A stretch of 64,000 nucleotides of DNA from Psammoneis japonica (GCA_008632985.1 QPGO01000015.1:125998-189997); one strand, 5' to 3'. Counted from the first letter of the stretch, positions 1 to 55,010 are shown. Made by a program: numbers and translations. Notes: generated from the letters alone by a model not told the origin.

Positions 1-1900
1 CGCACTGATGGAGGATGGCGATGACGGGACCACGCTGGGTCTCAATGACGGCACCAGCGGTGACAACAGGGATGTCCACCAATTGATGATCGTCAATGCC
101 CTGAACGTCAACTTGGCGAGAGGTGCGTGCAATGATGCGAACGTCGTCGCCAGCAATGCCGCTGTTGGCCCCACGATCGACTGGAGCGCCAGTGCGTGCA
201 GAGCGATGAGCAGAGGCAGAGCAAATGACATTGTGGCTGTCAACGCGGCGGCAAGTGCGGCCGTTAAGTTCCATGTCATCTGCAGAAGCTGGCGGGGTAG
301 AGGGAGCGGCGGATGGCCCCGGTCGACTGGCATTGGTGGCTTGGTTGGGAGACAACAGACGTTGCAGATCACCGGGTGGCAGTGGCTTGCGCTTGGTGAG
401 GTGCGCCAGGATGGGATTATCCGAAGTGGCGTCCACATTTGGAGCGGAGTCACCAGAGTCAGCAGGAGTCGTGTTGGACAAGTTGACATCACCGTCACTC
501 CCAAGGCGTTGGTCGTGAAGGTTGGCCGTAACAGACTCATGGCAGTTGCTGGCTCGCGGGTTGCGGGGAGGCGGACGAGAATGCTCAAGGATGATCGCCT
601 TGGAGGAATCGGGCAACGAATCCCAGATCCGTTGGTGGTCGGGGGGGAGACGTTTCCATTGGTCACCGGCGAGGCTGGGACTGCGGGTGCAGGCAGCATT
701 GGCCTGAAGGACGTCAATGTCGCTGTCAATGTCGTAGAACACATCGTCGGACGGTTCCTCGGAGCAGACGTCGTGTGTGTGTGTGGCGCGTCGGGGAGCT
801 CGAGGTGTCGTCTTGGGTTAAAACGTGCTGTTGCACTGAGCTGCCGCGGAGAGGAGCAAGCCACAGCATTGATCGCATGTGAGGCTCTTGCCACTCTGCG
901 TGCGATGCTGATCAGCTTGGTTCTTGACAGCACGGAGTTCCTCGACAGGGTGTGCGGCATTCTCGAGCATGACGCGCTTCTGTCCTTCAGAGAAGTGGTC
1001 ACTGGCCGGGATGAGTGCCTCGCACTTGCGCAACTGATCTTGCCAATGAAGGATGAACCCGTGGGTCGGACCTTTCCAAGTGCCATCACCAAGACGTGCA
1101 GTGGCAAGGTGCGTCAGCAAGGTGGATGACTCAACAGATGCGCGGGTGGAGGCGAGCGCGTGCTCAGACAAGGCGCGGCAGACGGTCTGGGCGTCAGAAG
1201 ACCCCACATTTTCGCGGATGAGAGCCTTGCCCTTGGTGAGAAGGATGCGTTCGAAGACGGCGAACATGTGCTTTTGCTGTTCAGCAAAGAGCAGTTTGTC
1301 TTCGGGGCTGGTTGGTTTGTACGACGAGTCTAGAATGCACTCGACGTCTTGGGCACGGGCTTGTGCCACAAGTGAGGTGTGCCAAGTGTGCCACTGCTTG
1401 TCGGATTTGAGAGCCGTGAAAGCGGTGGGATCACACTTGATGCCTCGCTTGAAGTCCCGCACCGGGTCGCGTGCCTTGGACGGGTTGGTGACATGCGGAG
1501 GTGCAAGGGGTGAGCTGCCGATGGACACAGAAGACATGCAGTCGGGGCTGAGGCGGCAGGCAAGGAACTCGTCATGCGTGAACAACGAGGAGTCATTGGC
1601 AACGTCAAGACCTTTGTGTGCTTTGACAATGTGCAGACTGACTAGAGCTGCTAACATGTTCTTATGACCACGGGGCAAAGGGATCACATTGGTGCCGTTG
1701 TCGCACTCAAGCGAGTCGATTTGGGACGGCATGAACGTGAACAGTTCTTGATGCGAGTCCGCACCGTCTTGGGCCAAAGCCAAACGAAGAGGGCTCCCAG
1801 CACCTTGGGCAAGCACGGTTCCAACAACGTGCTCGAAACCATCGGTTTGTTGCTGACGAGTGAGAACCATGGCAGACAAAAGTGGTGTCAGGACAAGCAA
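1..1900 (-). pseudogene. gag-protease polyprotein of the copia element, with an in-frame stop at 818-820 and many Tyr-to-Cys/His changes
   Basis: Gag and protease share one frame, separated by a TAA at 820-818. Expected Tyr positions read as C/H (QQKHMF, AQTVC, LLTHL, LTCDQCC, LHQCA). Confidence 0.8.
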
Positions 1901-3085
1901 TTCTTGTTGGGAAGCGAAGGTGGGCTTGAAGCTTGGGCGAGAATGGACTTGACTTGAAACAGACTTGACTTGAAATCTTGATCTGTCTTAAAATCAGAAG
2001 TCGCCGGGCTTTGCCATCCCGTTCGTTGTCAAGTGCTAAACTTCCCATCCGGTCCGTAGACTTGTGCCGGCACGTCCGAACCCGCAGCTGGCGGCGCTTT
2101 GGGTTGCTTGCGAGCGGAGCAGCGGGTTGCAAACCCCTGCAGGCAAGCTGACTGGAGGTGGACAAGACCCCCGAACCGTTCTTGTTTTACATCGGTTGGA
2201 TTTCCCGATCAGGCTGGCCAGTTGACGCAGGCGTCAGGCGCTGTGGACGAACGAACAAACGCGGGAAAGCACCCTCGCCCCAATGCAGGCTGCAATCACG
2301 GCCACTTGCTCTCACAGTCGTCCTTGTGGACCCAGCAGAACTGCAGAGCACCAGCAGTCCAGGGCAGATCAGGCACAATGGACTCGGTGTGCTTGCAGAG
2401 TGGTGGCAAAACCGCAGTCCGAAGAGTGGGTGCAGGTTCTTGGCCGTGAAGACATGTGCACACACACATGTCTTCAGCGACGAAGATCCTTGAATGTGTG
2501 GGGTTCTTGACCGTCAACCGATGAATGGGTGCATCAAGGGATGAGGATCAAGGATGGACTTGGATGTGACCGTTGAATGTGTGTCTTCAGCGACCAAAGG
2601 CAGCACAATCAATCCAGATGCCAGCAGCAAGGAGACTTGACGGTGACGTTAACTTCCTGCCGATGCCCTGGTGTTGAATGCGCGTAGACTTGCCGATGTA
2701 TGTAGAACACACACGGAGGTCCACGTAGAATTGAAATAGCGTCGTTGGTAAATCAACGACGATGATGGCGGTTGCTCAATGGGTTGACAATGAGCAAGAC
2801 TGTTGATCTGACAGAAAAATGAAGGCAAATGGCAAGAATTCAAACAACAACTCCTCACTGCTGTCTAAATGGCAGATGAGTCTCCACTCAGAGACCGTTG
2901 CAGGAGCCGAAAGACGTGTGAGTCGGTACAATCGGGCTACTGTTGTCATTCTTGTGAGCCTTGTGGCTCGAAAGCAAACTACATCGCGCGCGAACGCGCG
3001 GAACTAAAGCACACAAAACTGTGCGCGGCAAACTAAACAGCGCGCGATGCTTCGCGCGCACCTAAATCCTGTTCAAATCCTGTCA
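1..3085 (-). mobile_element. Ty1/copia (CoDi-type) LTR retrotransposon, 5' part (putative LTR, leader, gag, protease); continues beyond the left edge
   Basis: The minus ORF 818-1900 has diatom copia gag motifs (DFKRGIKxDPTAF, W..W....AQARAQDV, FILHWQDQLR, MLENA). The same frame at 196-1 reads RTGAPVDRGANSGIAGDDVRII...GIDDHQL, the CoDi protease motif xVDRGAN. The minus strand begins TGACAGGATTT at 3085, resembling a CoDi LTR start. The inner end of the LTR is not resolved. Confidence 0.85.
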
Positions 3086-4760
3086 GCACTTGCCAAGATT
3101 TTAGACGACTCTGATGCACCAAGCAAACAAAGCAGAGAGTTCAACCCAATCCCAGTTGTCACAACATTGGGGACCATCCAATCACAAGCTGCCAAAGCTG
3201 ATCCAATCCCTTGCACTTGACTCAATGAGAGGTTGAAATCCATTCCATGCACTTGCCAAGGCCCTGAAGAGCATTCTGGATGTGAGACAACAAGAGAACA
3301 AGATGCTGAGTGTGATCACCTGTCAAGATTCAAGAATCAGTGTGGCTGAGATGCAACAAGCAAAGGACTGGGAGACAAAATGCTCACAGATTTGTCTTCA
3401 ATGCCAAGGAGTGCCAAGAAGGAATTTCTGCACTTCAAAACAAACTGAAGAAGTCAGCATTCAAGACATGGACAATTTGCCTGTTTGTGGAGAACAGCAC
3501 AATGATTGCTGCTGCAAGAGCTTAAAGAAGAGCTTTGTGAGAGCCTGTGGCCTGGGTAAAGACACCCATCTAAAGACTCTAGAGAAGGCAATGGATGTGC
3601 AACTGAGCCATCTAAAAGACAAGGATTCTTGCAATTGACACAAGAGGAGTGACAACAAGGGTGGCAATGGCAGCAGCAACAATCTTTTTAACAACATGAA
3701 GGGCCAAAGCCATGCCCAGAAGAGCAACCAGAACAACACCACAGTGTGTTGCTTTTGTGGTGTGAACCAAATTGCAAGTTCCAAGACTGCAAGCATTGAA
3801 GAGACATTGCATGTGACAAGTGGTTCAAGATCACAACAAGGAAACCAGACATTGAGGGACAGAGTTGCACACAGACAGGAGTTGGGGATGATGACCACTT
3901 GTTGATGGTGACAATGTGAGTGTCAGCGTCACCAGATCTGACCAATCAACTCTTTTCAGCCAAAGCAGCTGGAGAGTGCTGCATGGCATGGGTTGCAACT
4001 CTTCAATGAAAGACCCGAGACAAGCACAAGCAAAGCCAACAATGGCACACCAAGGTGGTTGAGGAGATCATCCTTGACAATGACTCTGCCTTTCAGCATG
4101 GCAGCAAGCCAGAGACCAGCGCACAATGAGTTGGCAAGGATCAAGATTGATCTGTCCATGAACACAGGAGTGGGCACCCCAGACAAAGACCGCATTCTCA
4201 GGTTGAAGGATGTGAAGCACAAATGCTGCACAACACATGACAGCCAAGTTGGAGAAAAGTTCTGGCTGCCAGACAAGAAGACTGGCAAACAAGTTGTGGT
4301 GTTCACACCTTTGCACCTGGTCAGAAGTTCTTCAAGAAGAAAGTGAGTTGCATGTGAGCATGCTGTCAAAGAAGAAGAAGAGCAACAAGAAGCACAGGAG
4401 TGCATCTGGAACTGCAGCTCTGACAATTGAGCAGAGCTCCATGGGCTGCACCAAGAAGGAGGCAGTGCCAAGTGCTGAGCAAGCACTCAGACTGTGCCAC
4501 AAGGCTGGATCACCCAGCATGAGGAGCTTCAAGTGATTTTCACAATCACATCAGGCAAAGAGCTTGTCCATTGTCTCCAAAGATGTGGACAGGATGGCGA
4601 CCATCTGGGGTCTGCCAACGGATGTGTGAAAAGGCAAGACCAGGCTTGCACATCACTCCCACAAGAGGAACAACATCACAGCTGTCCCACCTGCTGAGAC
4701 ATGCAAAAGAAGCAGAGAGAAGGCATTGATCCTCTGCATTGACATTGTGGAGTCAAGGTT
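3086..4760 (+). mobile_element. Degenerate copia gag/protease-region fragment, same family as 43887-51964
   Basis: Collinear similarity to ~44830-46550. For example, KSLKKSFVRACGLGKDTHLKTLEKAMD matches TSFKKSFIRDCSLGKDTCAKTPEKAMD, and DKKTGKQVVVF matches DKKTGKKVVVF. Confidence 0.8.
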
Positions 4761-5898
4761 TGCAGAGTTAAAAAAAGAAAAGATCTAAATTTTAAGTGCC
4801 ATCACTCTTTTGCCAGCTGTGCTGGTGCCAGCAGATCCACCACACTTCCAGTGCACCAGTGAATTCAGCAGAGCTTGCAAGGATTGGTCAAAGTTGGCAC
4901 CACCTTGCAGCAATGCCCATTTGAGGTAGCTGGGAACAATGAGACAATGCTTTGTGGAGTTCATTGCTTTTGCATGGACTTGAGTCATGGCTGCCATGGT
5001 TCATGTGCAACCATGCCATGTTCAAGAACACTGTCATGTCAAATGTGCACCAACAGAAAGAAGCAAATTCTGACACTCACAGTGCACACACCATTGTGCA
5101 ATGAAGGAACCTTGACTGTGACAAGCACTTTGAGTTTGCCTTTGGTGAATTTGTCCTGTCTCAAGTTGAGAACAACCCAATGAACACCATGGATGCACCA
5201 CATGGCATTGAGAGCTTGCATTTGCAACCATGCTTTGACACTCTGCTGGAGGGCAGCCACTGCACTGTGAACCACACATGGGCAAGCTTCTGAATCCCTG
5301 CAAGTGCACTGCTGTGCCCCTGGCCAACGCGCACATGCAAGCAGTTGTAAAGATGGCCACAGCACAAGAAATCAAAGATTTTAAATTTGTGGACATGCAT
5401 CTGACAGTGTCCATTCCACACAAAAACAAAGATCCTTTGTCTTTGGCATTGTGGTGCTTCTTGCACATGCCCTTGCCTTGTTGAACAAAGTTGGTGCCCA
5501 CAATGAAAAAATCAAGCTCCAACTGGTCATGTTGTTTGCATTTGTTTGGCCCAATTTCTTCCAGTCAAATGCACCAAGAAGAGAATCCAAATCCACGTCC
5601 TTCAATCCTTCAGGCTTGTGCTGCAAGAACTTTGACTCAACATTGATCAAAACCAACTTCCAAGAAACACATCTTTGGTTGCAAAAGTGCCAAAAACATT
5701 GCGGAAAACAAGGAGGCAAGTTGGTGCCTCCTTGGTGCCACCATGATGATTGAGTTGCAGGCTTGTTTTGCTTGAGTTTAGTTTGAGAGCATGATCACAG
5801 ATGGAAAGAATTTCAGCCATGGATGCATTGTGGTTGAGGGCAGACTTCTTCTTTGGATGACGGTGCAGGGACATCATGGTGCAGAGGGGGGGGGGGGG

Positions 5899-6038
5899 NN
5901 NNNNNNNNNNNNNNNNNNNNNNNNNNNNNNNNNNNNNNNNNNNNNNNNNNNNNNNNNNNNNNNNNNNNNNNNNNNNNNNNNNNNNNNNNNNNNNNNNNNN
6001 NNNNNNNNNNNNNNNNNNNNNNNNNNNNNNNNNNNNNN
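5899..6038. other. Assembly gap (N run) preceded by poly-G
   Basis: Run of n characters. Confidence 0.99.
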
Positions 6039-7530
6039 GACATGGACAACAACTTGTCAATGGGGGGCATGCCATCAATGTCACCTTTCAGGTGGGAGAG
6101 CAGAGTGGAAAACTTTTCCTTGACAGACTCAGCAGTGAACTCAGTGGGGAGAAAACCCATGGGAAGAAAAGCCACTGTTGCACTCTTCAGCAACTGGTCA
6201 AAGAAATTGCATTGTTGGTTGAATGCCATGAGGGCTTTGACAGAAACCAACTTCCTCTTCCAGAATTCTTGACAAAATTTGGGAGAGTCAAACTTGTGCT
6301 TGCCACCCTTTGAAAAATGCAGTCCTGCTGAATGTTGGAAAACAATGTTGCACATGAAATTTCCAAATGCAGAGTCATGCTCAGCCCTGGACTGTGTGAC
6401 GCTTGCGGCGGACTGTGCATTGTCAATGACCTGCAACAGTGTGAAATTTACAAAGACAACAAGTGCAAGAAAGGAACAGCACAAAGCCACTGCCCAATGC
6501 CGAGGCCTGTTGCTGTGACATGCCTGCCAACAAAGCACTCCAATTGACTGCTGCCTGCCTTTCATGGCATGAAAACATTGACGTGCCTGTGGAAGCTCTC
6601 ATTGAAGCACTTCAAATTACAATGAAAGATGATGTCTTCACATTTGGAGACACCACACTTGGCACCAACAAAATGGCACAGCAATGGGTGCAGCACTGCC
6701 CACTCCCCTGCATGCCACACTCTGCTGTGTGATCCATGAAGACATGCTCCTGGAGGAATTTAGCCCCCAGCTGCATTGTTGCAAATGCTTTGTCAATGAT
6801 GTCTTTGGCATTTGCAAAATCACCAACCTTGTCACTGCCACTGCCACTGCCACCTGGGAAGCATTCATCTCCAGGCTTGACAATTTTGATGTCACCTGGA
6901 TCACAAGCTCCAGAAGTTGTCAAGTGAACAACTTTGTGGATCTCACCATCTCACTCCAAGGCTCCCACATCTCCACAACACCCTCTGCAAAAAAGAAATG
7001 AATTTGTGTGTCACACCCCACCACACTCAGCACATCTGCCTGGAGTGCTTGCCAGCCCAATCATGGGCATGCTTTTTTTGCTTCAAAAGTCTTTGCTCTG
7101 ACCCAGCTGACGATGCAAAAGCAAAAATGGAGCTGCCCCACCCAGGCTGTGCAAACCAGATGCCACAAGTCCAGCAAACTGCAAACACTCTTCCAAAAAG
7201 TGTGTGATCTCATCTTTGGCAATGCAACAAGAACAGAAGAGCCCCAGTCAAACCCCATCTTCCTGCACATCCTGCACCACCCAAACAACCCACCATCAAG
7301 CAAGCTTCAGAAGCTGCTGCAGAAAGAGGAGCAACGACCAACCCTGTCTGAATGCTCACAACCCCTCTCAAACCTGTGCAACAACATGTGACAGTGCACA
7401 GGACTCAACTGCATGATTGTCTGTTGCAGCCATTTGCATGACCTTGGAAACCTGCTCTGGCACCACAAACTCAGTTTCTCCCATGGCCCCCCAGTTTCAT
7501 CCTGTTGGATTGCAAACAGGGAAGCCACTG

Positions 7531-7578
<48 letters not shown>
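7531..7578 (+). repeat. (AGAC)12 microsatellite
   Basis: Perfect tetranucleotide run directly after the PLE coding end. Confidence 0.95.
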
Positions 7579-7692
7579 CGCACATTGAAATGACTTGAAA
7601 AATCAACAGACCAACTCCACTTGCCTGCCCCTCCAATGCTGCTCAGATCCTTGTTTTAACACAACAACCTCAGCTGCATTGACAACACCAGC

Positions 7693-7740
7693 TGGCCGCT
7701 GATGAAGCTGCTTGAAAAGTCTCACTCTTGACTTTGGCCA
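7693..7740 (+). ncRNA. Type I hammerhead ribozyme, probably degenerate, in the PLE terminal repeat
   Basis: The sequence reads tggccg-CTGATGA-agctgctt-GAAA(A)-gtc-tcactctt-gac-TT-tggcca. It has the catalytic boxes, a 6-bp stem I (tggccg/tggcca) and stem III (agtc/gact). Stem II is weak. Confidence 0.65.
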
Positions 7741-7859
7741 ATGTGTCGTTGTGCTTGTTGTTCACTGAACAGCTGCCTCAGCTGCTTTCTGTTTGTTTGT
7801 CCCATTTCACAGTTCACAGAAAATCAGCTTTGCCAATTTTGTTCATTCACTCAAGACAG

Positions 7860-9186
7860 AGATGGAGAGAAGCACTTGCCCACACTGTCTTTAACAGACT
7901 TCGTTGTTCATGTCTCCATGGCATGTCCCCTGTGGATGAAGAGGCGCCACTTGGTGTGGAGTGCACACAAGAACATTGAGCAGTGGAGCAAAAAAACCTT
8001 CAAATGCACATTCGCTGCTGATGTGCCAATGTTTTCCTGCCATGATGATCCAAACCTGTCATCTGAGATTGGGTGGCATGCTGCAAAAGAGCGCACAAGA
8101 CCAAAGAATGTTGGCAAATTGTTGGGAGCCAAGCTGTGAGACAAGGTGAGGCATGCTGTCATTTCCTTGGAGAACACAACTGTCACAATGAACAAAAGAT
8201 GATGAGTGTGCTGCCAGATCAAGGGGCAACAAACTGCAGTCAGAAAAACATCAATGAATTGCACAGACTGTCAGCGGTCAGCTGTCCTGCCTGTGGTGTG
8301 GATGCATTTGGGGTTTGTGACACCCTTTTGTGCATCTCAACACCAGCCATTTTCCCAAAGTCAAAGCAAGTTGTTGCAGTCTTGTGTGAGGCACCAATGG
8401 CATTGTTTGTGACACCATGAACAAGCTGGATTTGCTCCTCTTCTGCTGTGACATCAACCAAGCAAGTTCTGTGATTTGATGAACTTGCCACAGGACATGG
8501 AGTTCTTTGATTTGACTCCTGAGACAATCAACAGTTGGATCATGGTCCTGATCATTGGCCTGCACCACTGCAAAATTGCAAAAAAGAGGACTCGTCATGA
8601 AGATGAGGAGCACTTTGTGGAGTGTGCACAAGGTGTGATGCACTTTTGTTTGACAACATGGTTGATTGCTCCAATGAGGGATGGCATGCCAACCTGCCAA
8701 TTTCGGACTTGCAGGATGTCAGCACTGAAGCAACAGGTGTGCCTGGTGGCATTGTGGTCACCACACAAGAGAAATCAGTTTTCCCTCAATGCCCCCAGCC
8801 AGTCTGCCAACTGGCAGAACACAAATGCAAGCAGCAAGAGTGTGTTGGAACATCTAGATTGTGGAGTTTTGAAAAACCTGGGTGTGTTGAAGAAAAGACA
8901 TTTTTGCTCCTGATGTGGTTTGATTGGTGACTCATTGTGTGAAAAGTTTCATCATCATCAATCTCTCATGTTTCAGTTTCACATGTCACTCTTTGGAGTG
9001 CATCATTTGGTTTGTGCAATTTGTCATTCAGCATCAGCAGGCACCTGTTGTCATGTGAGAGTTCACAGCTTGCACTGATGCCTTGGGCAACCCACAGCCA
9101 TTGCAGATTGCCAGGGCAAGTGCATCAAGCAGCACAGGAAGCCCAGTGGGATTTCCTTTTGGCAACATTGACTTGCCAGCTCAACA
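7860..9186 (+). mobile_element. 3' end of a degenerate copia element: extra ORF relic, PPT and 3' LTR
   Basis: Homologous to ~50600-51964. cacaagaccaaagaatgttggcaa matches cacaagaccaaaaaatgttggcaa, and EFFDL..ETINSWIM matches EFFEL..GVINNWVM. Confidence 0.8.
8843..9186 (+). repeat. LTR (TGTTG...TCAACA), same family as the LTRs at 43887 and 51462
   Basis: Preceded by a PPT-like GCAAGAGTG. Shares ctctttggagtg..tcatttgg, ggcacctgt and ggcaacccacagcca with the other two LTRs. Confidence 0.85.
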
Positions 9187-10762
9187 CATGCTGCACTGCA
9201 CACTCCAGCTCACTTCACCAGCAAAAAAGGGGCAGCCATTGCCTGTTGTTGCCATGTGGTGAACAAGAAAGGAACATGGCACATGCAATGTCTCTCACAC
9301 CAAAATGATGTGCATTGTGAAAAACAAAGCACTCTCAAAACAAGAACACTCTCTCATCTCAACAGCTCTTCACTCCCTCTGTGCAGCTGGTTTGCAGAGT
9401 GGCCTTTCCTGCTTTGTTTTTCAGCCCAGTGACATGACAACACCAGAGTGCACAATGATGTTGCGCAGTTCAGTTGTGCTGGTTTTTGTTGTTTCCGAAT
9501 GCAAAAGAATGGCACACACAGCACACATGTGTTTGTGTCCAACAACTTGCCACACTTCCTCCCTTGCACTGTCTTTTTTGTGTGTGCAGCTGTGCTTGAG
9601 AAAAAAATTGTTTGTGCCAATCCTGTTTGCAGTGTTCAGAGCCCCTTTTCACTTGTGCACACACCAAAAATGTGTGGTCCACTCATTGCTTCTAGGGGGA
9701 GGGAATGCAGGATTTGGGCTGCACAGAGAGAGAAGTGAAAAGCATTTGCAATGGCTGGGAATGGTGCACAGCAGCTCTCAAGCATGTTGTGAGTCAACCA
9801 CTTGGGTGCACACTTGTGGAGTCCAATTGCACCACATGGCAGATGCCACAAGAATGATGGCACTGCTGCCTGTGGCCCATGTCAAACCAATCAAGAACTT
9901 TTCAATTTCTTGCTTCTTGGTGCAGCAAATTGCAATTTTGGGTGAAGCATCACTGCCAATTTCATTGTCATCAACTTTGTTGTTGCTGCCAGCTTCTCTC
10001 TCTTTTTCCCCAGCAGTTCTTTCTCTTTTTGTCCATTGCCATCGGTGGCCACATTGCTGCTGGCATGTTAATCTGATTGCTGTTGCTGTGTTTTGCTGAA
10101 GCTTGTTGTTGCCACTTGGCTGCTTGAATTCTCAGTCAATCCCTCAAAGAATTCAAGCCAATCACAGCCAGGGGGGTGCATGTGATCTGATGGAGTCCCC
10201 CAACAATGTGCAGCATTTCTTGTGATTCAACTCTCAAGCAGTGTCCAGCAGCATTGGCAAAGACAACAGCAGCTCAACATTGCCACTTGAATTTCTTTCC
10301 AAGGTGCTCCTGCAAAGGGCAATGGCTGCACCACAGTCAAGCTGACATCCCCAAGTCACCACCAACTGTGCTGGTTTCTTCTGCAGATGGTGTCAGTTTT
10401 CCACCTTGTCAACAGTGCACAGCAAGTCCAGCACAGGTCAGTCAGCTGTTGTTTCTGCCTCCAGTCTTTGGCTCTGTCACAAGCATGTTCAGAGAACATT
10501 GTGGTTAAATTCAAGAATTTGCACACAACTGCTGGTTTGTCACATCTTGCGATCACATCGTGAGAACAGCTTGATGTTGGTGGTTTTGCCTTTGGATGGC
10601 AAAATCAATGAGTTGCTCAGCAGTGTCCCCACCAAGGTGGACATGGCAGCACATGATGACAAGCATGCCAAAGATGAGCCTTGATTTGCAGAGAGGGGTG
10701 CAGCATCAATGTGGACGGTGATGGGCCCACCACTGCAAGAAAAGCAGTTGCCTCCTTGCCTG

Positions 10763-10944
10763 GCATGTTTTCAGCAGATTGCTGTGTTGCAAGACAGCAC
10801 AAGGTTGTTTGTCATTTGTTTTGCATGTTGTCAGCAGATTGCTGTGTTGCAAGACAGCACAAGGTTGTTTGTCATTTGTTTTGCATGTGGTCAGCACATT
10901 GCTGTGTTGCAAGACAGCACAAGCTTGTTTGTCATTTGTTTTGC
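10763..10944 (+). repeat. Tandem repeat, 3 x 60 bp
   Basis: The unit gcatgtt.tcagcagattgctgtgttgcaagacagcacaaggttgtttgtcatttgtttt repeats at an exact 60-bp period with few substitutions. Confidence 0.95.
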
Positions 10945-15559: not shown

Positions 15560-15857
15560 TTGGCCCCAAGTTGGCATTTTAATTGAGAGCCAGTGCTGAG
15601 GGGCTGTGAAGTGTGGGGTCAGGAGCCCAGAGCCAGCTCAGCCTGCACTCTTTGTTGATGGCACAAAGTGCTGCTGCAGCTGTCTTTGCATTGCAACCAG
15701 CCAGGTGCAGTTGGCCCCAAGTTGGCACTCAATTGAGAGCTGCTGCCAAGGGGCTGTGAAGTGTGGGGTTGGGCAGTCCAGCCAGCTCACACTCTTTGCT
15801 GACAGCAGAAAGTGCTGTCACAGCTGTCTTTGCATTGTGGTGCCAGCCAGGTGCACA
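15560..15857 (+). repeat. Diverged tandem duplication, 2 x ~150 bp
   Basis: Units start ttggccccaagttggca at 15560 and 15711. Both contain ggggctgtgaagtgtgggg and cagctgtctttgcattg. Confidence 0.9.
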
Positions 15858-43886: not shown

Positions 43887-44247
43887 TGTTAGAACAAGTT
43901 AGAAGATGGGAAATTTAGGAAATCCAGATGTGTTGTTGACAAAAAAAATTGTTGCTCCTGACATGGAGGATGCAGTGACTCACTGAGTGCAAAGGTGTGC
44001 CACCACCAAACTGACCCCACTTGTTTTGTTGTTCTCCCTCTTTGGAGTGAATCATTTGGCTTGTTAAGAACACATGATTGCACTGCATTGGCATCAACAG
44101 GCACCTGTCACATTGTGAGATTGAAGTTTACTTGGACAACTTTGCAGGCAACCCACAGCCACACAAGCAGCCAAGGCAAAAGCACAACAAGAGCAGAGGA
44201 AGCCTTGTGAGATTCCTGTTTGGTGCTGTTAAATTGCTGGTTCAACA
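43887..44247 (+). repeat. 5' LTR
   Basis: TGTTAGAACAA...CTGGTTCAACA, collinear with 51462-51964. Confidence 0.88.
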
Positions 44248-47200
44248 TTCACTCCAAAGAGCTGACAGCACAATCATGTTGGTGATTGTGGATGCTTTGC
44301 TGCCTGAAATTAAACAGATTGCTGAGCAGCAGCAATGTGAGTGGCAGAGGAAGTGCCAGAAACAATGACCAAGGCCAGGGTTGCAGTCATGGAAAGGGTG
44401 ACAACAGCCACAGCTCCTCTCAAGCCAAGAAGAAGACCACTGCTGAGAGATGCTTTTAGCCTCAGATGAAATTTCATCCTTCATCACTGATGGCAACAAC
44501 TCTTGTTGGAATGCAACCTTTGAAGATGTCCAGGAAAAGATTGTGAGGTGCGTGCAGAAGGAGTGCGCTCTCAAGGTGCACACATGGCAAGGTTCATTGA
44601 AGACATGGCTTGCAACAACTTCAGCACTGAAAGGCTGAAATTGGGAATGGCACTGATGGTGGCACTGACACCAGACAAGTCAGACAAGTTGCCACAGAGA
44701 CAACAAGAGGAAAAGGAACCAGAGCTCCAGTGCAAGGCAAAGCTTCCAAATGCAGTGGCCAAGCAAGGCAGCTCAAAGAGAACAAGACTGCAGCATTCAC
44801 CAACAAGACATCAGATGACTGCTGCACCAAGCAATTGAAGCAGAAAGTGCAAGCTGATCCCACTCATGCAAAGATCAGGGACAATCCAATCAAGCCATTG
44901 AAGCTGATCCAATCACTCACCTTCAACTCTGTGAGAGGTCAACACCCATTTCACAAGCTTGCCAGATCAATCCAGAATCTGCTGGATGAGAAACAACAAA
45001 ATCACAAGTCACTGAATGACTGCTTGTCAGGATTCAAGAATCAATGAGACACCACAAGTGAAGGTCTTGGCAAGCAAAGGCTGGATGAGTTCATTGAGAA
45101 TGCTGAAGAGTGCAAGGACAGTGCCAAAAGGCAACAAGGGGAAATGACAGATGCAGCATTTGAAACACAGACAACACACCTGTTTGTGCAGCATGATGAC
45201 AACTGCTTGTGCACAAGCTTCAAGAAGAGCTTCATCAGAGATTGCAGCCTGGGAAAGGACACATGTGCAAAGACCCCAGAGAAGGCAATGGATGCACTGC
45301 TGAATCATCTGAAAGACAAGAATCTTCACAAGAGAAACAACAAGAAGAACAACAAGCATGCAAATGATGACAACAAGAGCAAGAGGTCCGATTGTAGAAA
45401 GGACCAAAGCCATGCTCAGAAGAGCAACCAGAAGGACACTGTGACATGTCGCTGCTGTGGGGAAGCAAGCCACATGGCCCCAGACCCAGACTGCAAGCAC
45501 AAAAGAACAAGACAGTGTGTGATGATTGGCTCAAGGTTGCCGGCAGGAAACCAGATGCAAGGGGACAAAGTCATTTTCAGAAACAAGACAAAGACATCTC
45601 TTCTTTGAACATTGACAACACCAGTGCAAATGCCACCAGATCTGACCAATCCACCTGTTCAAACCAAAAAGCAGAGGAGCTGCATGGCATGGATTGCAGC
45701 TGGTCAACAAGAAACCAGAGTCAAGCATGAACCAAGTCAACAAAGACATTGGCATGGATGAGATCATCCTCAACAATGGTTTGACCCTCAGCAGCATGGT
45801 GGCCAGCTGGAGACCAGTGCACAATGTGTGACCCGCCAGGCCAAGATGGACCTGTCCAAGAATGCAGGAGTGGGCACTTTAGATGAGGCTGCACCACACC
45901 CAGATGGGAGGACATGAAGCTTAAATTGCAAGAAAATGTGTCAGCAAATGTTCTCAGGCCAAAGGATGTGAAGAGCAAACACCATCTTGCACATGACAGC
46001 CGAGTGGCAGACAAGTTGCAGCTGCTGGACAAGAAGACTGGCAAGAAAGTTGTGGTGTTCAAAGTCAACAACATCAGACTGCATGCCTTTGCACCAAGCC
46101 AGAAGTTCTTCAGCTGCACAAAAGATCTCCAAGAAAGCAAGCCCCATGTGAGCAGCTGTCAAAGACAAAGGAAAGGCTCAAAAAGAAGGGCAACACAAAA
46201 GCAGCAATGAGAGGCACCACAGGAGTGCACATGGAACTGTGGTTCTGATGCTCCCAGAGGGAGGTGGCGAATGCTGAGCAAGTGCTCAGGCCATGTTGCA
46301 AAGCCAGAATCCCCAGTGTGAGAGATTTCAAGCTGTTTTTACAATCAAAACAGGTGAAGAATCTGTCTGTCACACCTGAAGACGTGGACAGAATGGCGGA
46401 CATTTGGGGACCATCTGTCAAGGTGCCAAGAGAAAAGACCAAATGCACACATTGATCCCATGAGAGGAGCAACATCATTGCAATGACACTTGAGACACAA
46501 ACAAGAAACAGAGAGAAGGCATGATCCTCTGTGCTGACATTGTGGAAGCATGTGGAGCAAAGATCCTGCATGCAATCGACAAGACAATCAAGCGTTGATC
46601 AAATGTGAGACTGTGATCCAAGAAACATGCTGATGTGTGCAACATGTTGGACATGATGCTGCACCAATGCAGCATGGCTTTGTTCAAGATTGAATTTGTT
46701 GAGTGCAATTGCAAATTCAAGGACATGCTGGAAGACACTGCTGATGACCTGAACCTCAAACTGCCATCTGCAAATGCCAGCAACCATGTTCCTGAAAATG
46801 AGTGAAGTGTTGACACCATCAAGGAACAATCTTGAGCCACGGTGCACCACATGCCACACAAGGTGACACCCAAGCTGATGTTCAAGCACACAATGATCAA
46901 GAACACTGTGATGGTGAACACCAGCCTGCAAAAGGAAGGAATCTTTGACATGTGCAGTCCACACACTGTCATGCAAAGAAGAGTCCTTGTCCCATGTCAA
47001 AAATGGCTTGACAAACATGACAGAAGTGTGTGGTGTCAACAGCATGTGCCCCTGTGACCACATCTTGATGCACCCAAGGGTGGAGACTGCATGATGAACC
47101 TGCACACAGGGAAACTGCTGAACCCTGCAAATGCACTGCTGCACCCCTGACTGACATGCATGTGAGAGCAGCCAGTCAAGAAGATGGCCTCAGCAAAAGG

Positions 47201-47522
47201 CATCAAAGACTTTGAGTTTGTGGGAAAATGTGGAGACAACCTGCATGATGCTGATTGGACTGCAAGAGTGGACAACAAAAGAAAACAACAAAAACAAAGA
47301 AGACAACAACAACAGCAAAGAGGAAAGTGACAGCAAAGACAAAAACAAGTGCAAGATGATGGCAACTGAGTGACCAAATCAGAAGACAAACACTGCTGTG
47401 AAGAAGAGCCTGATCCAGAAGATGAATGTGAAGAAGCGAACAAATTGCTGGCAGGCAAAAGGTCCAATTCCAGTCAAAACACAAAGACAACGAGACAACA
47501 AAGAACAAGAAGACTGTGAAGA

Positions 47523-48140
47523 TGACAGAATGCCGAAGGTCAATGATGACAGAGGTGTGAAAGACTCCCCAAGCACCAGGACTGTGACAACACGAGCACC
47601 AGCAGATGAGAAAGTGAGAGGCAGATCTCAGAGAGATCTGCTCGTCATCTAGATGGTCTTGCCGTCATCCGCGTGCAGTCTGTCCATCGCAGGACAGTTG
47701 CATGTTCTTGAAATTCACAACAGATCTCTGCAATGGACATTGGAGCGGCCTTTGCAAGGTCGGGAGATGCCATGGTTTTACTTGGTGAGGGCATTTTTGG
47801 TCATGCACATGCAGAAATCTGGCATGTTTCTATGATCGTGAAAAATGCTGGGAAAGCGAGAAAAAAATGTTGTTGGAACAGACGATGAGGCTTGCTCGGT
47901 CGGCTCACAAAACAAACAAATCAAGACAGAAAGCTTGGAGCAGAGTTCTGTGGCACAGCGCAAGGCCATGACCTGACAGAATGCCAAAGGTCAATGATGA
48001 CAGAGGTGTGAAAGACTCCCCAAGCACTGGGACCACGAGCACCAGCAGATGAGAAAGTGAGAGGCAGATCTCAGAGAGATCTGCTCATCTGTCCAGATGG
48101 TCTTGCCATCATCCGTGTGCAGTCTGTCTGTCGCAGGATA
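47523..48140 (-). mobile_element. TRIM-like miniature LTR element nested in the copia pol region
   Basis: Direct repeats at 47523-47696 and 47974-48140 (~170 bp) flank a 277-bp non-coding core. On the minus strand the first repeat ends TGTCA and is followed by GGTCATGGCCTTGCG, resembling the GGTTATG half-tRNA-iMet PBS. No clear TSD or PPT. Confidence 0.65.
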
Positions 48141-51100
48141 GATGGGCTGACAGAAGAGTCAGATGAAGAATCAGAAGAAGATCCAGAAAGGGACAAATCA
48201 TCCACTGAAGGTCATGGAGAACTGAGACTGATGAATGAGGCAGACAGACTGCCAGGCAGAGTGACAAGGAGGAGTGGCACAAGATGTGGTGCAGCAATGA
48301 CGTGAAATCACTGGGACACTGAGAGAACAAAGTTTGGGTTGCAGGAGTGACAGACACAGCAACAGAAAAGGAGTGCAGAAAGCTTGAGTGCTGCATTCAC
48401 TTGAGAACTGACATTGGCTCAAATCCAGAGGATGACAATGTCAAATGTGATGCAGATGCAGGAATGACAGTGGCAGCTCACATGTGAGATCAACGGCCAA
48501 CTCCAATCAGAAAAGGGTGTTTCCTTTGCCCAGCAGTGCCCACTGCATGAGGCCCAACAGCATTTGGCCAGAGGACATGAAGCCCCAGAGAAAGAAGCAA
48601 AACAGCTGCATGACAGAGTGTGCTTTGCACTGATCTCAGTGAAAGACATGTCTCCGACTGAAAGGAGGATGAAGGCCATGATTGCCTTGATGTTCCTGAT
48701 GGAGAAGCACAATGGTCACACAAAAGGGCAATGGTTTGCAGTGGGAAACCAACTGGGGAATGGCTGGACAAGGAAGATTTGGCTGACCCAACTGCATCAC
48801 TAGAAGGTGTGCTGACAACAGCTGCCATTGATGCAATGGAAGAGCATGATGCAATGTGGGCTGATGTGCTGAATGCATTCATGCAGACATGGCACATGGA
48901 TCTTGGAGCCAAAGGAAGGCAAAGACCAGATCACAGCAAAGACCGCAGGAGTGTTGGTCAACATGTTGGCAAGCATGATTGATCCCAACCTGTGCAGACC
49001 ATGCACAGTCATGGAAAAGAGGAAGAGAGTCCTCTCTGCATCCAAGTCATTAAAGCAACAGCATGTGGCACGTTGATCGCAGCTTTGCTGTGGCACAAGC
49101 AGCTCTGCAAAGACTTGGAGAAGATTGGGTTTAAGCTCAGCCTGTGCAATCCATGCATTGCCAATTGGTTGATCCACAGCAAGCAGCACACCACGCCTTT
49201 TCACATTTGCAAGCTGTTGTTGAGCCACAAGAACCTCAGCGTCAACGGCAAACTTTTGAGCCAACATGCATGGAATTTTTGGTGAGGTTGTCATGACATG
49301 AGGAAAGAAACATGACTGCCTTGGGATGACACTGGACTTCAGCCACAAGGGCAAGGTGAAAGTTGATGTGACCAACTGTGTCCACACAAGATGATTGATC
49401 AATTCCCAGACAAGATCAAGAGCACCAACACCATCATGATGCCAGCAGGGAGAACCTGTTTGATGCAGGCGGCACTAGAATGTCAGCCAAAAAAGCAAAA
49501 ACATTCCATGCACGGGTGGCCAAGGGACTGTTTGCACCCAAAAGAGGCCAGACAGATGTGCGCCCAACCATTGCAGTGCTGTGCACACAAGTCAAGGGAC
49601 CAACCAACAAGGGGGTTGGGGGAAGCTGGTTCATTGTCTCAAGCATTTGAACTGGACAAGAAATGAAGTTGCTGCATCAAGTGCAAAGGACCTCTGAGTT
49701 GTCAAGTGGCACGCAGATGCATCATGTGAAGTGCACCTGGATTTCAAGACCCCTGCCGGAGGAGTTGTGACTGTGGGCAATGGAGCAGTGTGCAGGCCAT
49801 GTCAAAGCAACAGAAGCTCAACACCCAAAGCAGCACAGAAGCTGAGCTGGCAGGAGTTGACAATCCCACAACTGTGGTGCTGTGGACAAAGTTGTTCATG
49901 GAGCACCAAGGCTGTCCAATCAACAAAAACATCCTTTCTCAGGGCAATCTCAGAGTGCAGTGCTGTCCCACCAATGACATTCTTGGAGACTTCTTCATGA
50001 CTCAGCCCTCACAGGCCAGGGTGAGCAGTTTTGAAAACTGAAGAGAGCCATTCTGAGCTGTTGACATCAACAAGCATGACAGGAGCATTTCCTGTTTGTG
50101 ATGTCAGACAAGAATTCTGATGCATGTGGGTGAAAGAACCCTGCAATCTGGAAGATGCATTGAGCCGTGTGGTTCAACCAACCACCATTGTTCATTTTGA
50201 CATGAACCATGATGATCTCAATGGCCATTTGTGCCAATCCTGAAGAGGAAGATGCAAAGTGGGCTGTGGAGAAGCTTGAGCCAAATGATGTGTTCATGCA
50301 ATGGTGGCCACAACAGCATTTGGATGAGTTCCCAAAGTCAGACAAACTGTCAACAAGAGAAAGGAAAAGGCCATGAGACAAAGATTTCCAGAAGGCACTG
50401 GAAGAACATGACAAATGAAAGCAAGGTCATTGACATGCATTTGTTTGTGATCAAGTTCATGGAAGGCTGAGAGGAGAACTGGAACTCTTGGTGAGGACTT
50501 CCAGAAGAGCACGGGAAAGAATTTGAGTGAATGTGGCATGAGCTGTGGACAGCAAGACACAAAAAACAATGGGACACATGCACAAGGTGAAACAGCACAG
50601 ATGGTCCAATCATGCATGCATGACATTGTGTGTCCACTGCTGCACTGATGATCTCCTCACTTGACAATGGAGAGGAGACATTGACCGTGGTCAAGGACTT
50701 TGCAAGAGCAGCACACAAGACCAAAAAATGTTGGCAAGTTGAGATGACACAGGCACAAGGACTTCCATGTTTCAGGCTGTGACTCCAGCTGAGTGATGGC
50801 TTTAACCCAAGAGAACAACACAACATGAAAATGATTGTGGAGCCACACAGTGACAAACTCCATTTTGCATTAGATGCAAAGGACACCCGCTGCATGGGAA
50901 GGCTGTCAACATCAGGCTGTCCCACACACAGCATGGGTCATTGCAGGACATGCGAACCTTGCTCTTGTGAAGCTCACCACCAACCATCCCATGGAAACTT
51001 AAAAAAAAGTGGCAACTTGGGTTGTTGTGAGACAACAACAGAGGAGTTGTCTTTGATGCTTTGAAGCTGGCACAATTCTTCAAGCACAAAAATGTCAAAG

Positions 51101-51461
51101 CAAGGCCTCACAAGGAACAGACTTGTCACAATCTGGAGTTCTTTGAGTTGGGCCATGGAGTCATCAACAATTGGGTGATGGAGTCAATCAGACATGCCAG
51201 CCCACACAGCATTGCTGTGCAAGAGAAGACTTGGCATGCTTGTGTGAAGTGTTTCATGGATCAAGCATGCAAGATCACAAATGCATTTAACAATTTGCAG
51301 AGTCCACATGTTTGCAGGCTGAGTGGACATGCCAACGGAAGCATTGAAATGACCAGCAGGCCAGGAGGGCATGTTGTTGAGAACAAGGAGAAAATGCAAA
51401 GCCAGAGCATCAAGAGATGAAGTTGAGTGTGTGCAGAAAATTGGTGCAAGAGGCAGGAGTG

Positions 51462-51964
51462 TGTTGGAACAATTTAGAAGAAGGGAAATTTAGGAAAATC
51501 CCAGGTGCACTGAAGAAAAGACATTGTTGCTCCTCCTGACATGCTGGAGGATGTGGTGACTCACCAAGTGCAAAGGTGTGCCATCACCAAGCTGACCCCA
51601 TCCATTTTGACATTCTCACTCTTTGGAGTGAATCATTTGGCTCATCAAAAATGTGCGATCGCATTGCATCGGTGTTGCTGGAGAAATGCACTCTGACCCT
51701 GTCCACAGTTGTGGATTGAACGGCATGCCAGGCATTGTCAAAAGCTTGGTGCAGGCAGCAGTTGGCAAGGGCTGTGTAAATTTTAAGATTGAGTTGAATT
51801 GCATTGGTGTTGCTGGACACACCTGTCACATTGCAAGATTGAAGTTTGCACAGACAACTTTTGCAGGCAACCCACAGCCATGCAAGCAGCCAAGGTGAGT
51901 GCAATGAGAGCACAGGAAGGCACACATGATTCCCGTTTGGTGCCACCAACTTGCTGGTTCAACA
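51462..51964 (+). repeat. 3' LTR, about 140 bp longer than the 5' LTR
   Basis: TGTTGGAACAA...CTGGTTCAACA after the PPT, with an extra internal segment at ~51680-51810. Confidence 0.88.
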
Positions 51965-54900
51965 AAACCAGCATGATGTGGCTGTCCTGTGGTGCACAAC
52001 AAGGTGGGGCATGCCCTTGACCAGCAAACTAAAGATGCCACATGGTCATTCAAAAATGCAAGAAGCCCGTCACAGCTTGGCTGATGTGATCTTGGTCGAG
52101 GTCAGAGAGACTTGCTTTCCCAGCCCACAGGATGACCTTGAAGTTCATCAAAGTCAATGTTTCCACACTCCCAAAGAGCAGAGGTTCAGCAAAGGTGCCA
52201 CATGCATCTGGAGCAACACAACAAAAATTGTCCCAACAATGAACACAGCTGCCTGCCCAGGAGGATGAGAGAGTGGCTCTTGTGCTTGTGGCAATGCCAC
52301 ATGAGCCTGCCATTGCTGATGATTTGCTGCTTTCCAGTTTTGCCAAAAGCCACACTGTGGCAGCACAGGAGCAAATCAGTCGGGTCAAAATCTTCATCAC
52401 AAGCCTTCACAACAAGCCCGGGAGTTGCTGACAACAAAGATGATGTTTGAAGCAAAATTGGCAGTGGCTGTGCACCAGAGGTCATGTTGCCAGACTTCCT
52501 GGAGATCGCATGCCATCATTCCTCAACAATCTTGGAACACTGGGGACAATGACCCACAAAAAACACAAGAAAAGTTGAGAATGCTGACATTCATGCCAAG
52601 ATGAACAGTTGTTGAGGCACTTGGCAGCTGATCATTGAACTTAGCTGAAAGCACAAATCTCGCCAAAAACTTGTTGGCACAAGCTGGGAAAAATGCAATG
52701 ACTTGGTGAAAAGCATCCGTGATCAGCTTGGTCACAAGGTGGGCCTGCAAAACTTCATTCTTTGAATCCTCAAGGATTTCACCAAAGACCAACTTGATTC
52801 TTCCCAGCACAATCACTTCAGATCCAGCAGCCACCTTGTGGCAAAAAGCAAAAAAGCAATGGGCTTTGGCATCAGATGCTTTCTCTTCAAGTGATTGTTT
52901 TTCTTGGTCTCAGGAGTTTTGACACCACTGTTGGAGTGCTGTTGCAAGTTTTGATGGCAGCCAGAGCCAAAACTGGACAGTGGTTCTCAGTGACTGCAGC
53001 ACAACATCGGAGAATGTCTTGATGGGGGATTTGGATGCAGAGGCACATGCAACAGCCTGACAATCATTGCCGCCAAAGTTGTTGCCACAGTTGTGACAGA
53101 AAAAGTCAGCACACCTGGCAAAATGCAGCAGGCCCCTTGATTGAGGGAGAAGCCCCCACTCTGTGTTGGATGACACAAGCAATGATGGCTTTGCATCACA
53201 CAATCAAGGCCAGAAAATTGGCTGCCACGGTGAAGGTTCTTCTTGCCACCTGGGACAAACTCCTGATGGCAAGAATGACACCCCAGGGGGTGCTGCTGGG
53301 GGTGGAGTTGCTGCCGGGGGGGGGGGGGGGGGGCAACAATGACCAGCTGCTCAGCAGCAGCAGCAGTCATGGTGCTCCAAACAAAGGCACTCATGAGATT
53401 GAGGGTTGTTTGTGCCATTGGCAGGAGCTGGGCTCTCAATGTTGTCCAGAGGAGTCTTGGTGCCAGACAGGTTCAAGGTGATGTTGCCTGTTTTTGTTTT
53501 TGACAACAAGAAAGGAGACAACAAAATGTCCCTCAGAACACTCTTGATGAGACCTGTCATGGGGGTGTGACTTCACTGACAGTGTTTGAAAAATTCAGAC
53601 AAACTTGTGTTTGTGTCGCCACCATGATTGCTGACAAAAAAGGGGGTGGCTGCTTTGATGACAGGAACAGTGCAACCTTCATGGAGCACACAGAGGCAGC
53701 ACAGGTCAAATTGACTGTGGGCACAACAAAAAGTGTCAGAAGAGCTGGCACCATGACAAAGACAAGGAGTTGTTTGGTTGTGAGAACACTGTTTTTGGAG
53801 CTCAATGTTGAGGAACACTTGGCAGGGTGAAGTTTTCCAGTGCTCAATCACCACAAGGGTGCCAGCAGCCATGTGTGGTGCTGCAGAGGAGTGCAAAGTT
53901 GGGCAGAGTGGATCAGAGCACACATTTTGTGAACAGAGCTGAGGAACTGACTGACTCTGCAGTGGAAAACACAGAGGCGGCATGCCAGCTTCACATTCGA
54001 GGCTGGCTGCTTGCAAAAAATGTGGTCCAGAGAGGTGAGCATGAAAATGTGCACAACTGGGTGTCAGCAAATTTGTGTGAAAATGCTCCATGCAATGGAC
54101 AGGGGTTTGAGGTCTTGCCCAAACAACACTCGGAAGAAGACACAAGCACCATCAGAAGTCATTTTGCAGCACAAAAGATGCAAAATTTGGAGATGATGTT
54201 GCAATGGTCAAAAAGAAGATTCATTGTTGACCAACAAAAGACTGAAGACAACATTGATGACTGCAACAGAGGACAAGAAAAAATGGCATGAAGGCCATTT
54301 TTTGAATCAACCCTGGTGGCTGCAGGGCAAGCCATCAGAAGAGACCCAACACGATGTCAGCATGAGATTGGGCAAGAAGATTGCCCATGTTCTGATGCAG
54401 CAGATCAGAAAATCAAACCAGAGTTGAGATTGCAACCAGAATGGGATGGATGGTGGAGATTTTCCAAATCGAGCACAGCGGCAAAGTGGACTTTGCGGCA
54501 GCTGCTTGTTGAAAAGTCTGGCTTGCCAGCCTCGTCACCAAGCCAAGCAACGAAGGCAAAAAAGCTTCTCACACTCCAATGCAACATGCCAGAAAAGACA
54601 AAGCAGATTGAGATTGCAGACAAAAGTGACCAATCTGTGGAAATTTTCCGGATGTGGCACACAACAGCAGCAACACGGGTTTCTTTGTGGTGTTGCAAAG
54701 GGGCGAAATGGGGGGTCAAATGAAACTTTGAGGAGCAAAAAAAAAAAAAACACACACACACCAATGAATGCAGTGGTTCACGTGTGATTGCATGAGACAT
54801 GAAATCAACAAAACGAGATTGTCTGGCATTGTTGGCCCATTTTGGGTTGCCGCAACTGATCCCATCTCTTGGCCGGCTGCCGGCAGCAGTCTGTGTCCGT

Positions 54901-55010
54901 CTGTCCATTCCACTCTCATCATCTGTCGTCTGTCCATCCTGCTTCGCGGCAGAAGTGAGAAGTGAGAACCCGACACATGGCGGCAAGTGGGAGACAATGA
55001 TTTTAGACCT
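51965..55010. mobile_element. Hypermutated repeat/transposon relic DNA, class unresolved
   Basis: TpA is nearly absent until ~55000, where normal composition resumes. Some fragments look protein-like (53827-54291) but were not recognised. Confidence 0.5.

Follow-up and report, generated by a model that had tools for sequence, protein, structure and literature searches.

To our knowledge, no cellular process that specifically removes the TpA dinucleotide from DNA was known before 2026. The closest described system is that of the chlorarachniophyte Bigelowiella natans, for which a preprint on 15 mutation-accumulation lines reports that 231 of 302 nuclear mutations fell in integrated giant virus and virophage DNA and that 230 of these 231 were A>G or T>C changes, all at TpA (Mettrop et al., bioRxiv 10.64898/2026.01.13.699255). 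The available text of the preprint also describes 124 TpA-poor, CpA- and TpG-rich clusters, whose TpA-depleted coding sequences are enriched in DDE and reverse-transcriptase domains, and its authors suggest that an ADAT2-like enzyme deaminates adenine, in a defence resembling the repeat-induced point mutation (RIP) of fungi. Here we describe a stretch of 64,000 nucleotides from Psammoneis japonica (GCA_008632985.1 QPGO01000015.1:125998-189997; hereafter, the window), in which two transposon islands, island A (3111–19050) and island B (34841–55003), have lost nearly all TA dinucleotides. A first-pass annotation of this DNA had taken the loss for a candidate undescribed process, but TpA hypermutation is described in the B. 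natans preprint; what is new, as far as the literature was searched, is that it occurs in a diatom, that it is saturated there, that it can be separated from CpG decay and that TTAA is spared. That search returned fungal RIP papers and the B. natans preprint, and nothing on TpA loss in the transposons of diatoms.

The islands resemble the products of fungal RIP in that context-specific transitions affect transposons and aberrant islands stand beside normal genes, and RIP can likewise destroy whole families. However, RIP converts CpA to TpA and lowers G+C, whereas the islands have lost TA at constant G+C; RIP also needs duplicated sequence and a sexual phase, and much of island B is now single-copy by word depth, although earlier copies may have diverged too far to be recognised. 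Methyl-CpG decay, as in vertebrates, plants and diatoms, accounts for the CG to TG/CA half of the pattern and for six allelic CG/TG or CG/CA differences described below, but TA removal is not explained by it. Diatom transposons are CpG-methylated, and many diatoms carry RID-related DNMT4 genes, whose function is given as unknown in the part of the study available (Hoguin et al., 2023; PMC9998398); these could bear on the CpG half of the pattern, not on the TA half. AID/APOBEC and ADAR also produce context-specific hypermutation against selfish nucleic acids, and these animal systems are driven by deaminases; nevertheless, APOBEC makes C>T changes in TC and CC contexts of single-stranded DNA, ADAR targets RNA, and neither yields A>G at TpA in a chromosomal DNA transposon.

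The composition of the window was followed by a 1-kb dinucleotide scan and by block totals, in which observed counts were compared with expected ones (o/e). Island A contains 44 TA against 1078 expected (o/e 0.04) and 92 CG against 900 (0.10), with CA and TG both raised to 1.89; in island B, 61 TA are present against 1337 (0.05) and 195 CG against 1157 (0.17), CA and TG being at 1.80 and 1.94, respectively. The gene blocks had been called TA-normal, and so they are (0.55–0.61): the block at 19051–34840 has 625 of 1017 expected TA (0.61), 947 of 955 CG (0.99), CA at 1.06 and TG at 1.15, and the block at 55004–64000 has 320 of 580 TA (0.55), 539 of 544 CG (0.99), CA at 1.10 and TG at 1.14. The G+C content is alike in islands (0.48) and gene blocks (0.49), and the fraction of pyrimidine-purine (YR) steps is nearly constant (0.243–0.245 versus 0.236–0.237), as expected if the four YR steps turn into one another by transition. 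Of the stop triplets on both strands, 91% are TGA in both islands, compared with 51–55% in the gene blocks; the dominance of TGA, already noted in the first-pass annotation, is a trivial result of TA loss.

The switches between island and gene DNA are sharp in this window, within tens of bases. At the right border of island A the final sparse TA lies at 19038, dense TA beginning at 19068; at the left border of island B dense TA ends at 34838 (switch pair 34838/34971), which corrects the edge first placed at 34,950 to about 34841; and at its right border TA returns at 55004. TA had also been described as nearly absent from position 1 onwards, which holds for 3111–19050 and 34841–55003 but not for 1–3110, a GC-rich stretch (G+C 0.56) with no recognisable gene (no Pfam match for 10 of its open reading frames, ORFs), where TA is only partly depleted (o/e 0.20) and CpG is normal (0.91).

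CpG loss, which had been mentioned only as background, in fact accompanies TA loss over most of both islands, and TA loss is at least as complete as CG loss in every segment compared: TA and CG o/e are 0.06 and 0.34 in 17001–19050, 0.09 and 0.25 in the segment 39001–42400, which contains a piggyBac-type gene, and 0.02 and 0.05 in 35401–39000. The CG ratios of the two islands (0.10 and 0.17), together with arginine codons that now read CAY, TGY, TGG or CAA, are consistent with the signature of methyl-CpG decay. At the edges of island B the two losses come apart. The left edge zone (34841–35400) retains 2 of 31 expected TA (0.06) and 35 of 37 CpG (0.94), and the right edge zone (54470–55003) none of 33 TA (0.00) and 19 of 32 CpG (0.59). 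Since TA is lost without CpG loss at these edges and in 1–3110, the TA process is independent of the CpG process; the two are separable, and TA loss does not depend on CpG loss. A link of TA loss to methylated chromatin, proposed earlier, is weakened by the same zones, because TA is missing where CpG is intact.

The direction of the change was examined in a degraded piggyBac-type transposon gene of island B (39556–42340, plus strand), recognised from Pfam, its homologues and a protein alignment (alignment A2). It comprises an ORF for the N-terminal part (39556–40914), an ORF with the DDE domain (40793–41689; PF13843 DDE_Tnp_1_7, E 8.3e-15, 55.4 bits against a cut-off of 22.4) and a stretch (41033–42340) read through six in-frame TGA codons, written as X, all on the plus strand. 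The read-through gave 781 homologues at E ≤ 1e-3, the best of them with E 1e-88 and 41% identity over 430 residues, while neither a word-indexed search of longer proteins with the piggyBac ORF nor a PDB sequence search returned a homologue. Besides the in-frame TGA codons, at least one frameshift interrupts the gene.

For a codon test, 23 long homologues were picked by eye for coverage among the 150 listed of the 781, and a column was taken as conserved when at least 60% of at least 10 homologues agreed. None of nine conserved tyrosines is kept in the window, the codons being TGC or TGT in six cases and CAC, CGC and AAC in one case each. In contrast, glycine is kept at 11 of 14 positions, lysine at 9 of 12, aspartate at 10 of 12, phenylalanine at 8 of 10, leucine at 9 of 11 and tryptophan at 7 of 8, and conserved residues other than tyrosine and arginine are kept at 96 of 131 positions (73%; tyrosine versus all others, Fisher p 1.6e-5). 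An excess of change in TA context over other A/T-containing codons, which the first-pass annotation had suggested looking for, is thus seen in tyrosine as against lysine, phenylalanine and leucine. Conserved arginines are kept at 5 of 11 positions, and the others read CAC, CAT, TGT, TGG, CAA and AAG, that is, histidine twice, cysteine, tryptophan, glutamine and lysine. The protein as a whole has 0.46% tyrosine, against a median of 4.4% in the 150 listed homologues, and 9.4% cysteine, and its ORFs are still 299–453 codons long despite the loss of every conserved tyrosine.

Related elements were compared at 80 metagenome loci, where TA o/e ranges from 0.49 to 0.92 and none of the 80 is TA-poor, so the equally TA-free relatives that might have undone a directional reading were not found among them. 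Several of these loci are CG-poor, down to 0.11, with normal TA; the CG median is about 0.8, compared with 0.05–0.12 here. Judged from these loci, TA-poverty is not native to the element family. A conversion of about 95% of TA sites, set against a background divergence of roughly 5–10%, would imply a per-site rate well over 10 times that of the average site and comparable to, or above, that of methyl-CpG decay.

Change in place is recorded by repeat copies. Two copies of a repeat resembling a long terminal repeat (LTR) lie at 43887–44247 and 51462–51964, both on the plus strand (80% and 79% identity in self-BLAST), the right one with an extra insert of about 230 bases (51591–51819); a third, weaker copy lies at 8826–9010. 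Their alignment (alignment A1) shows striking coupled two-base changes, one copy having TG where the other has CA. Excluding the insert, the pair has 11 adjacent CA/TG swaps, against a mean of 0.70 and a maximum of 5 in 1000 column shuffles. A second pair, formed by 44804–46546 and its degraded paralogue at 3094–4751 (plus strand, 64% identity over 1806 columns), has 74 swaps (shuffle mean 9.6, maximum 19), and two repeat controls from the gene blocks have none. Over the 319 aligned bases of the LTR BLAST segments, changes from one YR step to another account for 30 of 62 differing sites (13 CA/TG swaps, two TA/TG, one CA/TA and one CG/TG), and the segments differ also by 11 other transitions and 21 transversions. 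Such a CA/TG swap arises when a single palindromic step of the ancestor, TA or CG, has changed on one strand in the first copy and on the opposite strand in the second; read in this way, the alignments indicate that mutation acted on chromosomal copies after their insertion and at random with respect to strand.

The pattern is also present outside the assembly, where the first-pass annotation had advised looking for it, in contigs built independently from a public sequencing run (X1). This run contains 0.97 of the sampled words of 33001–43000, and its Logan contigs, compared over 33001–53000, reproduce island B in pieces of 1–4.3 kb with 0–5 differences each, at a depth in 31-letter words of 64–75 as against 63 in the flanking gene. 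The depth, together with contigs that reach 315 kb, would fit accurate reads, the library type not being on record. If a modified base at a palindromic TA were misread, CA and TG would be mixed at every site and the contigs would be broken; neither is observed, which argues against misreading. The region 43.7–52.3 kb is multi-copy, its word depth reaching 3562 at 47.7–48.3 kb, and 35.4–43.7 kb is near single-copy depth (at ≥80% likeness), yet equally TA-free. Between the window and contigs that represent other copies, transitions prevail and are spread almost evenly over the four directions (A>G 233, T>C 207, C>T 212, G>A 224, each transversion type 24–61), and CA/TG swaps occur at 46532-3, 47917-8 and 47969-70 among the 40 printed of 1265 copy differences. 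In single-copy island DNA, window and contigs differ by six CG/TG or CG/CA changes, one TA/TG change (48802) and one transversion, which hints that both classes of site are still mutable, on a single case for TA. Over 33001–53000, contigs of run X3 cover nothing and those of run X2 only the gene flank, which is not evidence on island expression.

The TA that survive are not a random sample. TTAA makes up 34 of the 105 surviving TA in the islands but 31 of 943 TA in the gene blocks (odds ratio 14, p 1.6e-19), and survival by 5' neighbour, both strands counted, is 0.024 after A, 0.045 after G, 0.119 after C and 0.34 after T. Erasure is therefore most complete at TA followed by T or C or, equivalently, preceded by A or G; seen from the adenine, TAT and TAC are the most fully erased, then TAG, and TAA the least. 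We also considered a strand bias of the TA change, since TG o/e exceeds CA o/e on A-rich strands, and rejected it as an effect of normalisation, because the raw counts run the other way; the split of six cysteine codons to one histidine codon at tyrosine positions is too small to support such a bias.

The swaps, the tyrosine test and the relatives, none of them TA-poor, uphold for this window the earlier proposal of a directional TA to CA/TG change that acts on both strands and is confined to the transposon islands. We hypothesize, with a probability of about 0.8, that the islands are tracts of dead transposons between expressed genes in which two context-specific transition processes have run near to completion, the TpA one being of the kind described in B. 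natans. The islands would be made up of piggyBac, an LTR element, reverse transcriptase-bearing elements and unrecognisable DNA. One process would be the usual decay of methylated cytosine, from CpG to TpG/CpA; the other would turn TpA into CpA or TpG, a change of T:A to C:G at the palindromic TA on either strand at random. Both processes would feed CA and TG, which explains why these have doubled while G+C has stayed at 48%. The TpA process may be a chromatin- or RNA-guided defence that wrecks the coding capacity of selfish DNA, rewriting every tyrosine codon, TAA and TAG, and the codons ATA, TTA, CTA and GTA.

Compared with B. natans, the likeness lies in the change of TpA to TpG or CpA depending on the strand, in the targeting of selfish or foreign DNA, in regional borders and in CpA- and TpG-rich clusters. 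The differences concern the host, a diatom (Stramenopila) and not a chlorarachniophyte (Rhizaria); the target, here transposon islands at saturation (TA o/e 0.04–0.05), there a viral region with a Rho_TpA of 0.45; the near-total CpG loss over most of the islands, the available text of the preprint making no mention of CpG or of diatoms; and the sparing of TTAA, that text describing only the TpA dinucleotide. The rate was measured directly in B. natans (bioRxiv 10.64898/2026.01.13.699255), whereas here it is deduced.

Several points count against our reading. The rate is drawn from end states, no de novo mutation having been observed, and the codon test is likewise an argument from an end state, in one element with nine tyrosine columns. 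The 80 comparison loci share only 27–47% protein identity with the element and are relatives, not ancestors. The CA/TG swaps prove YR mutation in place and not TA loss specifically, the ancestor being either TA or CG, and 21 transversions in 319 bases mean that the LTR-like pair is old, or is not the true pair of one insertion. The TTAA preference presumes an ancestral usage of flanking bases like that of the gene blocks, although a 14-fold effect is unlikely to come from this assumption alone. Finally, run X1, from which only contigs were used, derives from the probable source sample and study of the assembly, so its independence is limited.

As to chemistry, enzymatic deamination of adenine to hypoxanthine in 5'-TA context seems the most likely, although we would place it slightly below even odds. 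It yields the transition that is observed and, as far as is known, TadA/ADAT2-type tRNA A34 deaminases always see U33 on the 5' side of their target. A broader proposal, which we offer tentatively and regard as rather unlikely to hold in full, is that of an ancient, widespread defence across Stramenopila, Alveolata and Rhizaria (SAR), shared by diatoms and chlorarachniophytes, independent of cytosine methylation, guided by chromatin or small RNAs as far as promoter edges and carried out by a nuclear DNA adenine deaminase derived from TadA/ADAT2, in which the U33-A34 specificity for tRNA would have been co-opted as a 5'-TA specificity for DNA; if true, such a system would amount to a natural 'adenine base editor' and would mirror fungal RIP. 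The main rival, unlikely but the most serious, places the chemistry on thymine, which at TpA in silent chromatin would be oxidised or hypermodified (5-hydroxymethyl- or 5-formyluracil, or a base-J-like modification) and would then mispair with G or be misrepaired, or in a biased mismatch repair specific to heterochromatin. The data show only that T:A becomes C:G at TA and do not distinguish which base of the pair is attacked, and a palindromic target with a random strand outcome fits either. Dinoflagellates replace much of their thymine by 5-hydroxymethyluracil, with TpA and TpC as preferred sites, and 5-formyluracil forms mispairs with G; however, we know of no such thymine modification in diatoms. 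Passive mispairing would, moreover, have to reach at least the rate of methyl-CpG decay, since TA loss equals or exceeds CG loss in every segment, and the bursts in single B. natans lines (2–45 mutations per line in the available text of the preprint) look enzymatic. That one ADAT2-like deaminase acting on both A and C in DNA produced the two losses, without cytosine methylation, would account for their coincidence and similar completeness over most of both islands, and ADAT2 of amphioxus and of Trypanosoma deaminates A and C, as cited in the preprint; we nevertheless hold it improbable, as the losses separate at the island edges and in 1–3110 (TA 0.00–0.20, CG 0.59–0.94), the 80 related loci fall to a CpG of 0.11 while TA is normal, and diatom transposons are CpG-methylated (PMC9998398).

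An origin of the pattern in sequencing or assembly, through a modified base of heterochromatin that is systematically misread, is very improbable. Nanopore base-calling does err at methylated motifs, and X1, with its unrecorded library type, shares its sample with the likely source of the assembly. But its contigs of 1–4.3 kb at the depth of the flanking gene (64–75) fit accurate short reads, strand-specific misreading of a palindromic TA should have halved the depth and fragmented the contigs, neither of which is the case, the coding damage comes with frameshifts and in-frame stops, and in B. natans Illumina data from mutation-accumulation lines gave the same signature (bioRxiv 10.64898/2026.01.13.699255). 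Hardly credible is an ADAR-like A-to-I hyperediting of double-stranded transposon RNA that was fixed by reverse transcription and reinsertion. It draws on the preference of ADAR for a U 5' of the edited A, mentioned in the Discussion of the same preprint, and on the retroelements present in the islands, but the piggyBac gene belongs to a DNA transposon and is no less affected, the LTR-like copies came to differ by CA/TG swaps after insertion, and unrecognisable and edge DNA is equally TA-free within block-wide borders that ignore single elements. ADAR is, besides, a metazoan family. The chance that the elements, or a foreign donor, never had TA and CG is practically negligible: nothing beyond the composition itself speaks for it, whereas conserved tyrosines read as cysteine or histidine and conserved arginines as cysteine, histidine, tryptophan or glutamine, relatives elsewhere are TA-normal, copies differ by CA/TG swaps, and transposase proteins without tyrosine codons are not viable.

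The earlier report concerned one chlorarachniophyte, in a preprint, and mainly integrated viruses. With the signature saturated over 36 kb of transposon DNA in a diatom, a member of a group of major marine primary producers, the TpA process is unlikely to be peculiar to one species, and transposons are targeted and not only viruses. The extended sequence preference is a constraint that any candidate enzyme must reproduce and, if it is true that the enzyme is a natural DNA adenine deaminase preferring TA, it would be of interest to base editing. TA-free islands also have practical effects, as they defeat homology-based annotation of transposons, bias k-mer and dinucleotide statistics and mislead the dating of LTR insertions.

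The difficulty of annotation is apparent in the other elements. Among the 147 of 164 island ORFs (at least 97 residues) submitted to Pfam, the piggyBac is the one that was recognised; matches to IL12p40_C, NNH3 and DUF7879 in island ORFs were sub-threshold and were dismissed as chance. Tyrosine loss had been claimed for three unrelated element classes (copia, Penelope-like and piggyBac), and of these piggyBac is confirmed, while copia and the Penelope-like element rest on weak ESM Atlas leads. Two of the motifs cited for separate classes, FVQCMP (41168–41185) and DNCCT (41375–41389), both lie in the piggyBac gene. The third, HATLCC, was found where a reverse transcriptase is suggested, at 6711–6728 within an ORF of 122 residues with reverse-transcriptase-like motifs (6633–6998, plus strand), whose ESM Atlas score is 0.92–0.93, RVT_1 being carried by 32% of one cluster (a weak lead). 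Three read-through frames of 6040–8441 had no Pfam match, nor did a GIY-YIG match appear in Pfam scans, which covered only part of island A. An assembly gap of 140 N at 5899–6038, inside island A, adjoins this remnant. In island B, three short ORFs in two frames (48468–49391, plus strand) may be remnants of a copia-type reverse transcriptase, with an ESM Atlas score of 0.93 to a Bacillariophyta cluster and RVT_2 on 21% of a cluster, again a weak lead; they sit in the multi-copy element flanked by the LTR-like repeats, and six read-through frames of 44300–47901 and 47800–51401 gave no Pfam family.

Two further observations concern the piggyBac homologues. Eight of the 150 listed are themselves poor in tyrosine (0–1.1%; P0136, P0138, P0165, P0182, P0200, P0250, P0259 and P0265), and those included in alignment A2 (P0136, P0138, P0250 and P0259) have histidine, cysteine or arginine at otherwise conserved tyrosines; these metagenome sequences may belong to other organisms in which TpA has been erased in the same way. 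The long homologues P0122, P0123, P0124, P0127 and P0129 (881–1065 residues) have an N-terminal region of about 500 residues in which motifs like those of DEDDh/DnaQ-type exonucleases were seen by eye ('FISFDLETGG', 'WNG.SCD.EWI' and 'AH.SLVD..AQ', at columns ~170–480 of alignment A2). Degraded equivalents are present in the window ORF 39556–40914, for which Pfam gave no match, and these proteins may form a family of piggyBac-exonuclease fusions.

The gene blocks hold their genes in long uninterrupted ORFs. By Pfam, the block at 19051–34840 encodes ubiquitin, a 2OG-Fe(II) oxygenase, a CRAL/TRIO protein, RPN11, CTNNBL, a PT-repeat protein and an MFS transporter, and that at 55004–64000 two HSF-type factors, two Lin0512-family proteins and a plastid PAP/fibrillin. 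The closest named relatives of RPN11 (87–89% identity; best match 94%) are all diatoms (Nitzschia, Cylindrotheca, Epithemia, Fistulifera and Trieres), as are all named relatives of CTNNBL (35–40%; best match 46%). These protein matches place the window in the nuclear genome of a diatom to which no sequenced species in the protein collection is closely related.

The MFS transporter gene (33124–34822, minus strand), recognised from Pfam MFS_1 and from a contig of run X2, borders island B. This contig covers 33210–34191 and 34286–34822 and skips 34192–34285, probably an intron of 94 nucleotides, which makes the contig resemble a spliced transcript; X2 is probably a transcriptome. The contig ends at 34822, 19 bases short of the island, and the border thus seems to coincide with the 5' end of the transcript. 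The two zones that are TA-free and keep CpG (34841–35400 and 54470–55003) lie directly upstream of the two flanking genes and, if they hold promoters, TATA-like elements there would be erased. The 2OG-Fe(II) oxygenase-superfamily gene (20731–22002, minus strand, E 1.2e-6) lies 1.7 kb from island A. Enzymes of this superfamily include oxidases of nucleic-acid bases; its nearness to the island is probably a coincidence.

In the second gene block, within 55127–61429, the adjacent HSF-type genes (56345–57211 and 57212–58090, minus strand) and the two Lin0512-family genes (58083–59333 and 59559–60320) look like tandem duplicates. Short tandem duplications are also found in the islands, at 10763–10972 (88–91%), 15560–15862 (79%) and 47523–48144 (88%), and a microsatellite of the (GACAGACA) type, which translates as DRQT repeats, lies near 7.3 kb.

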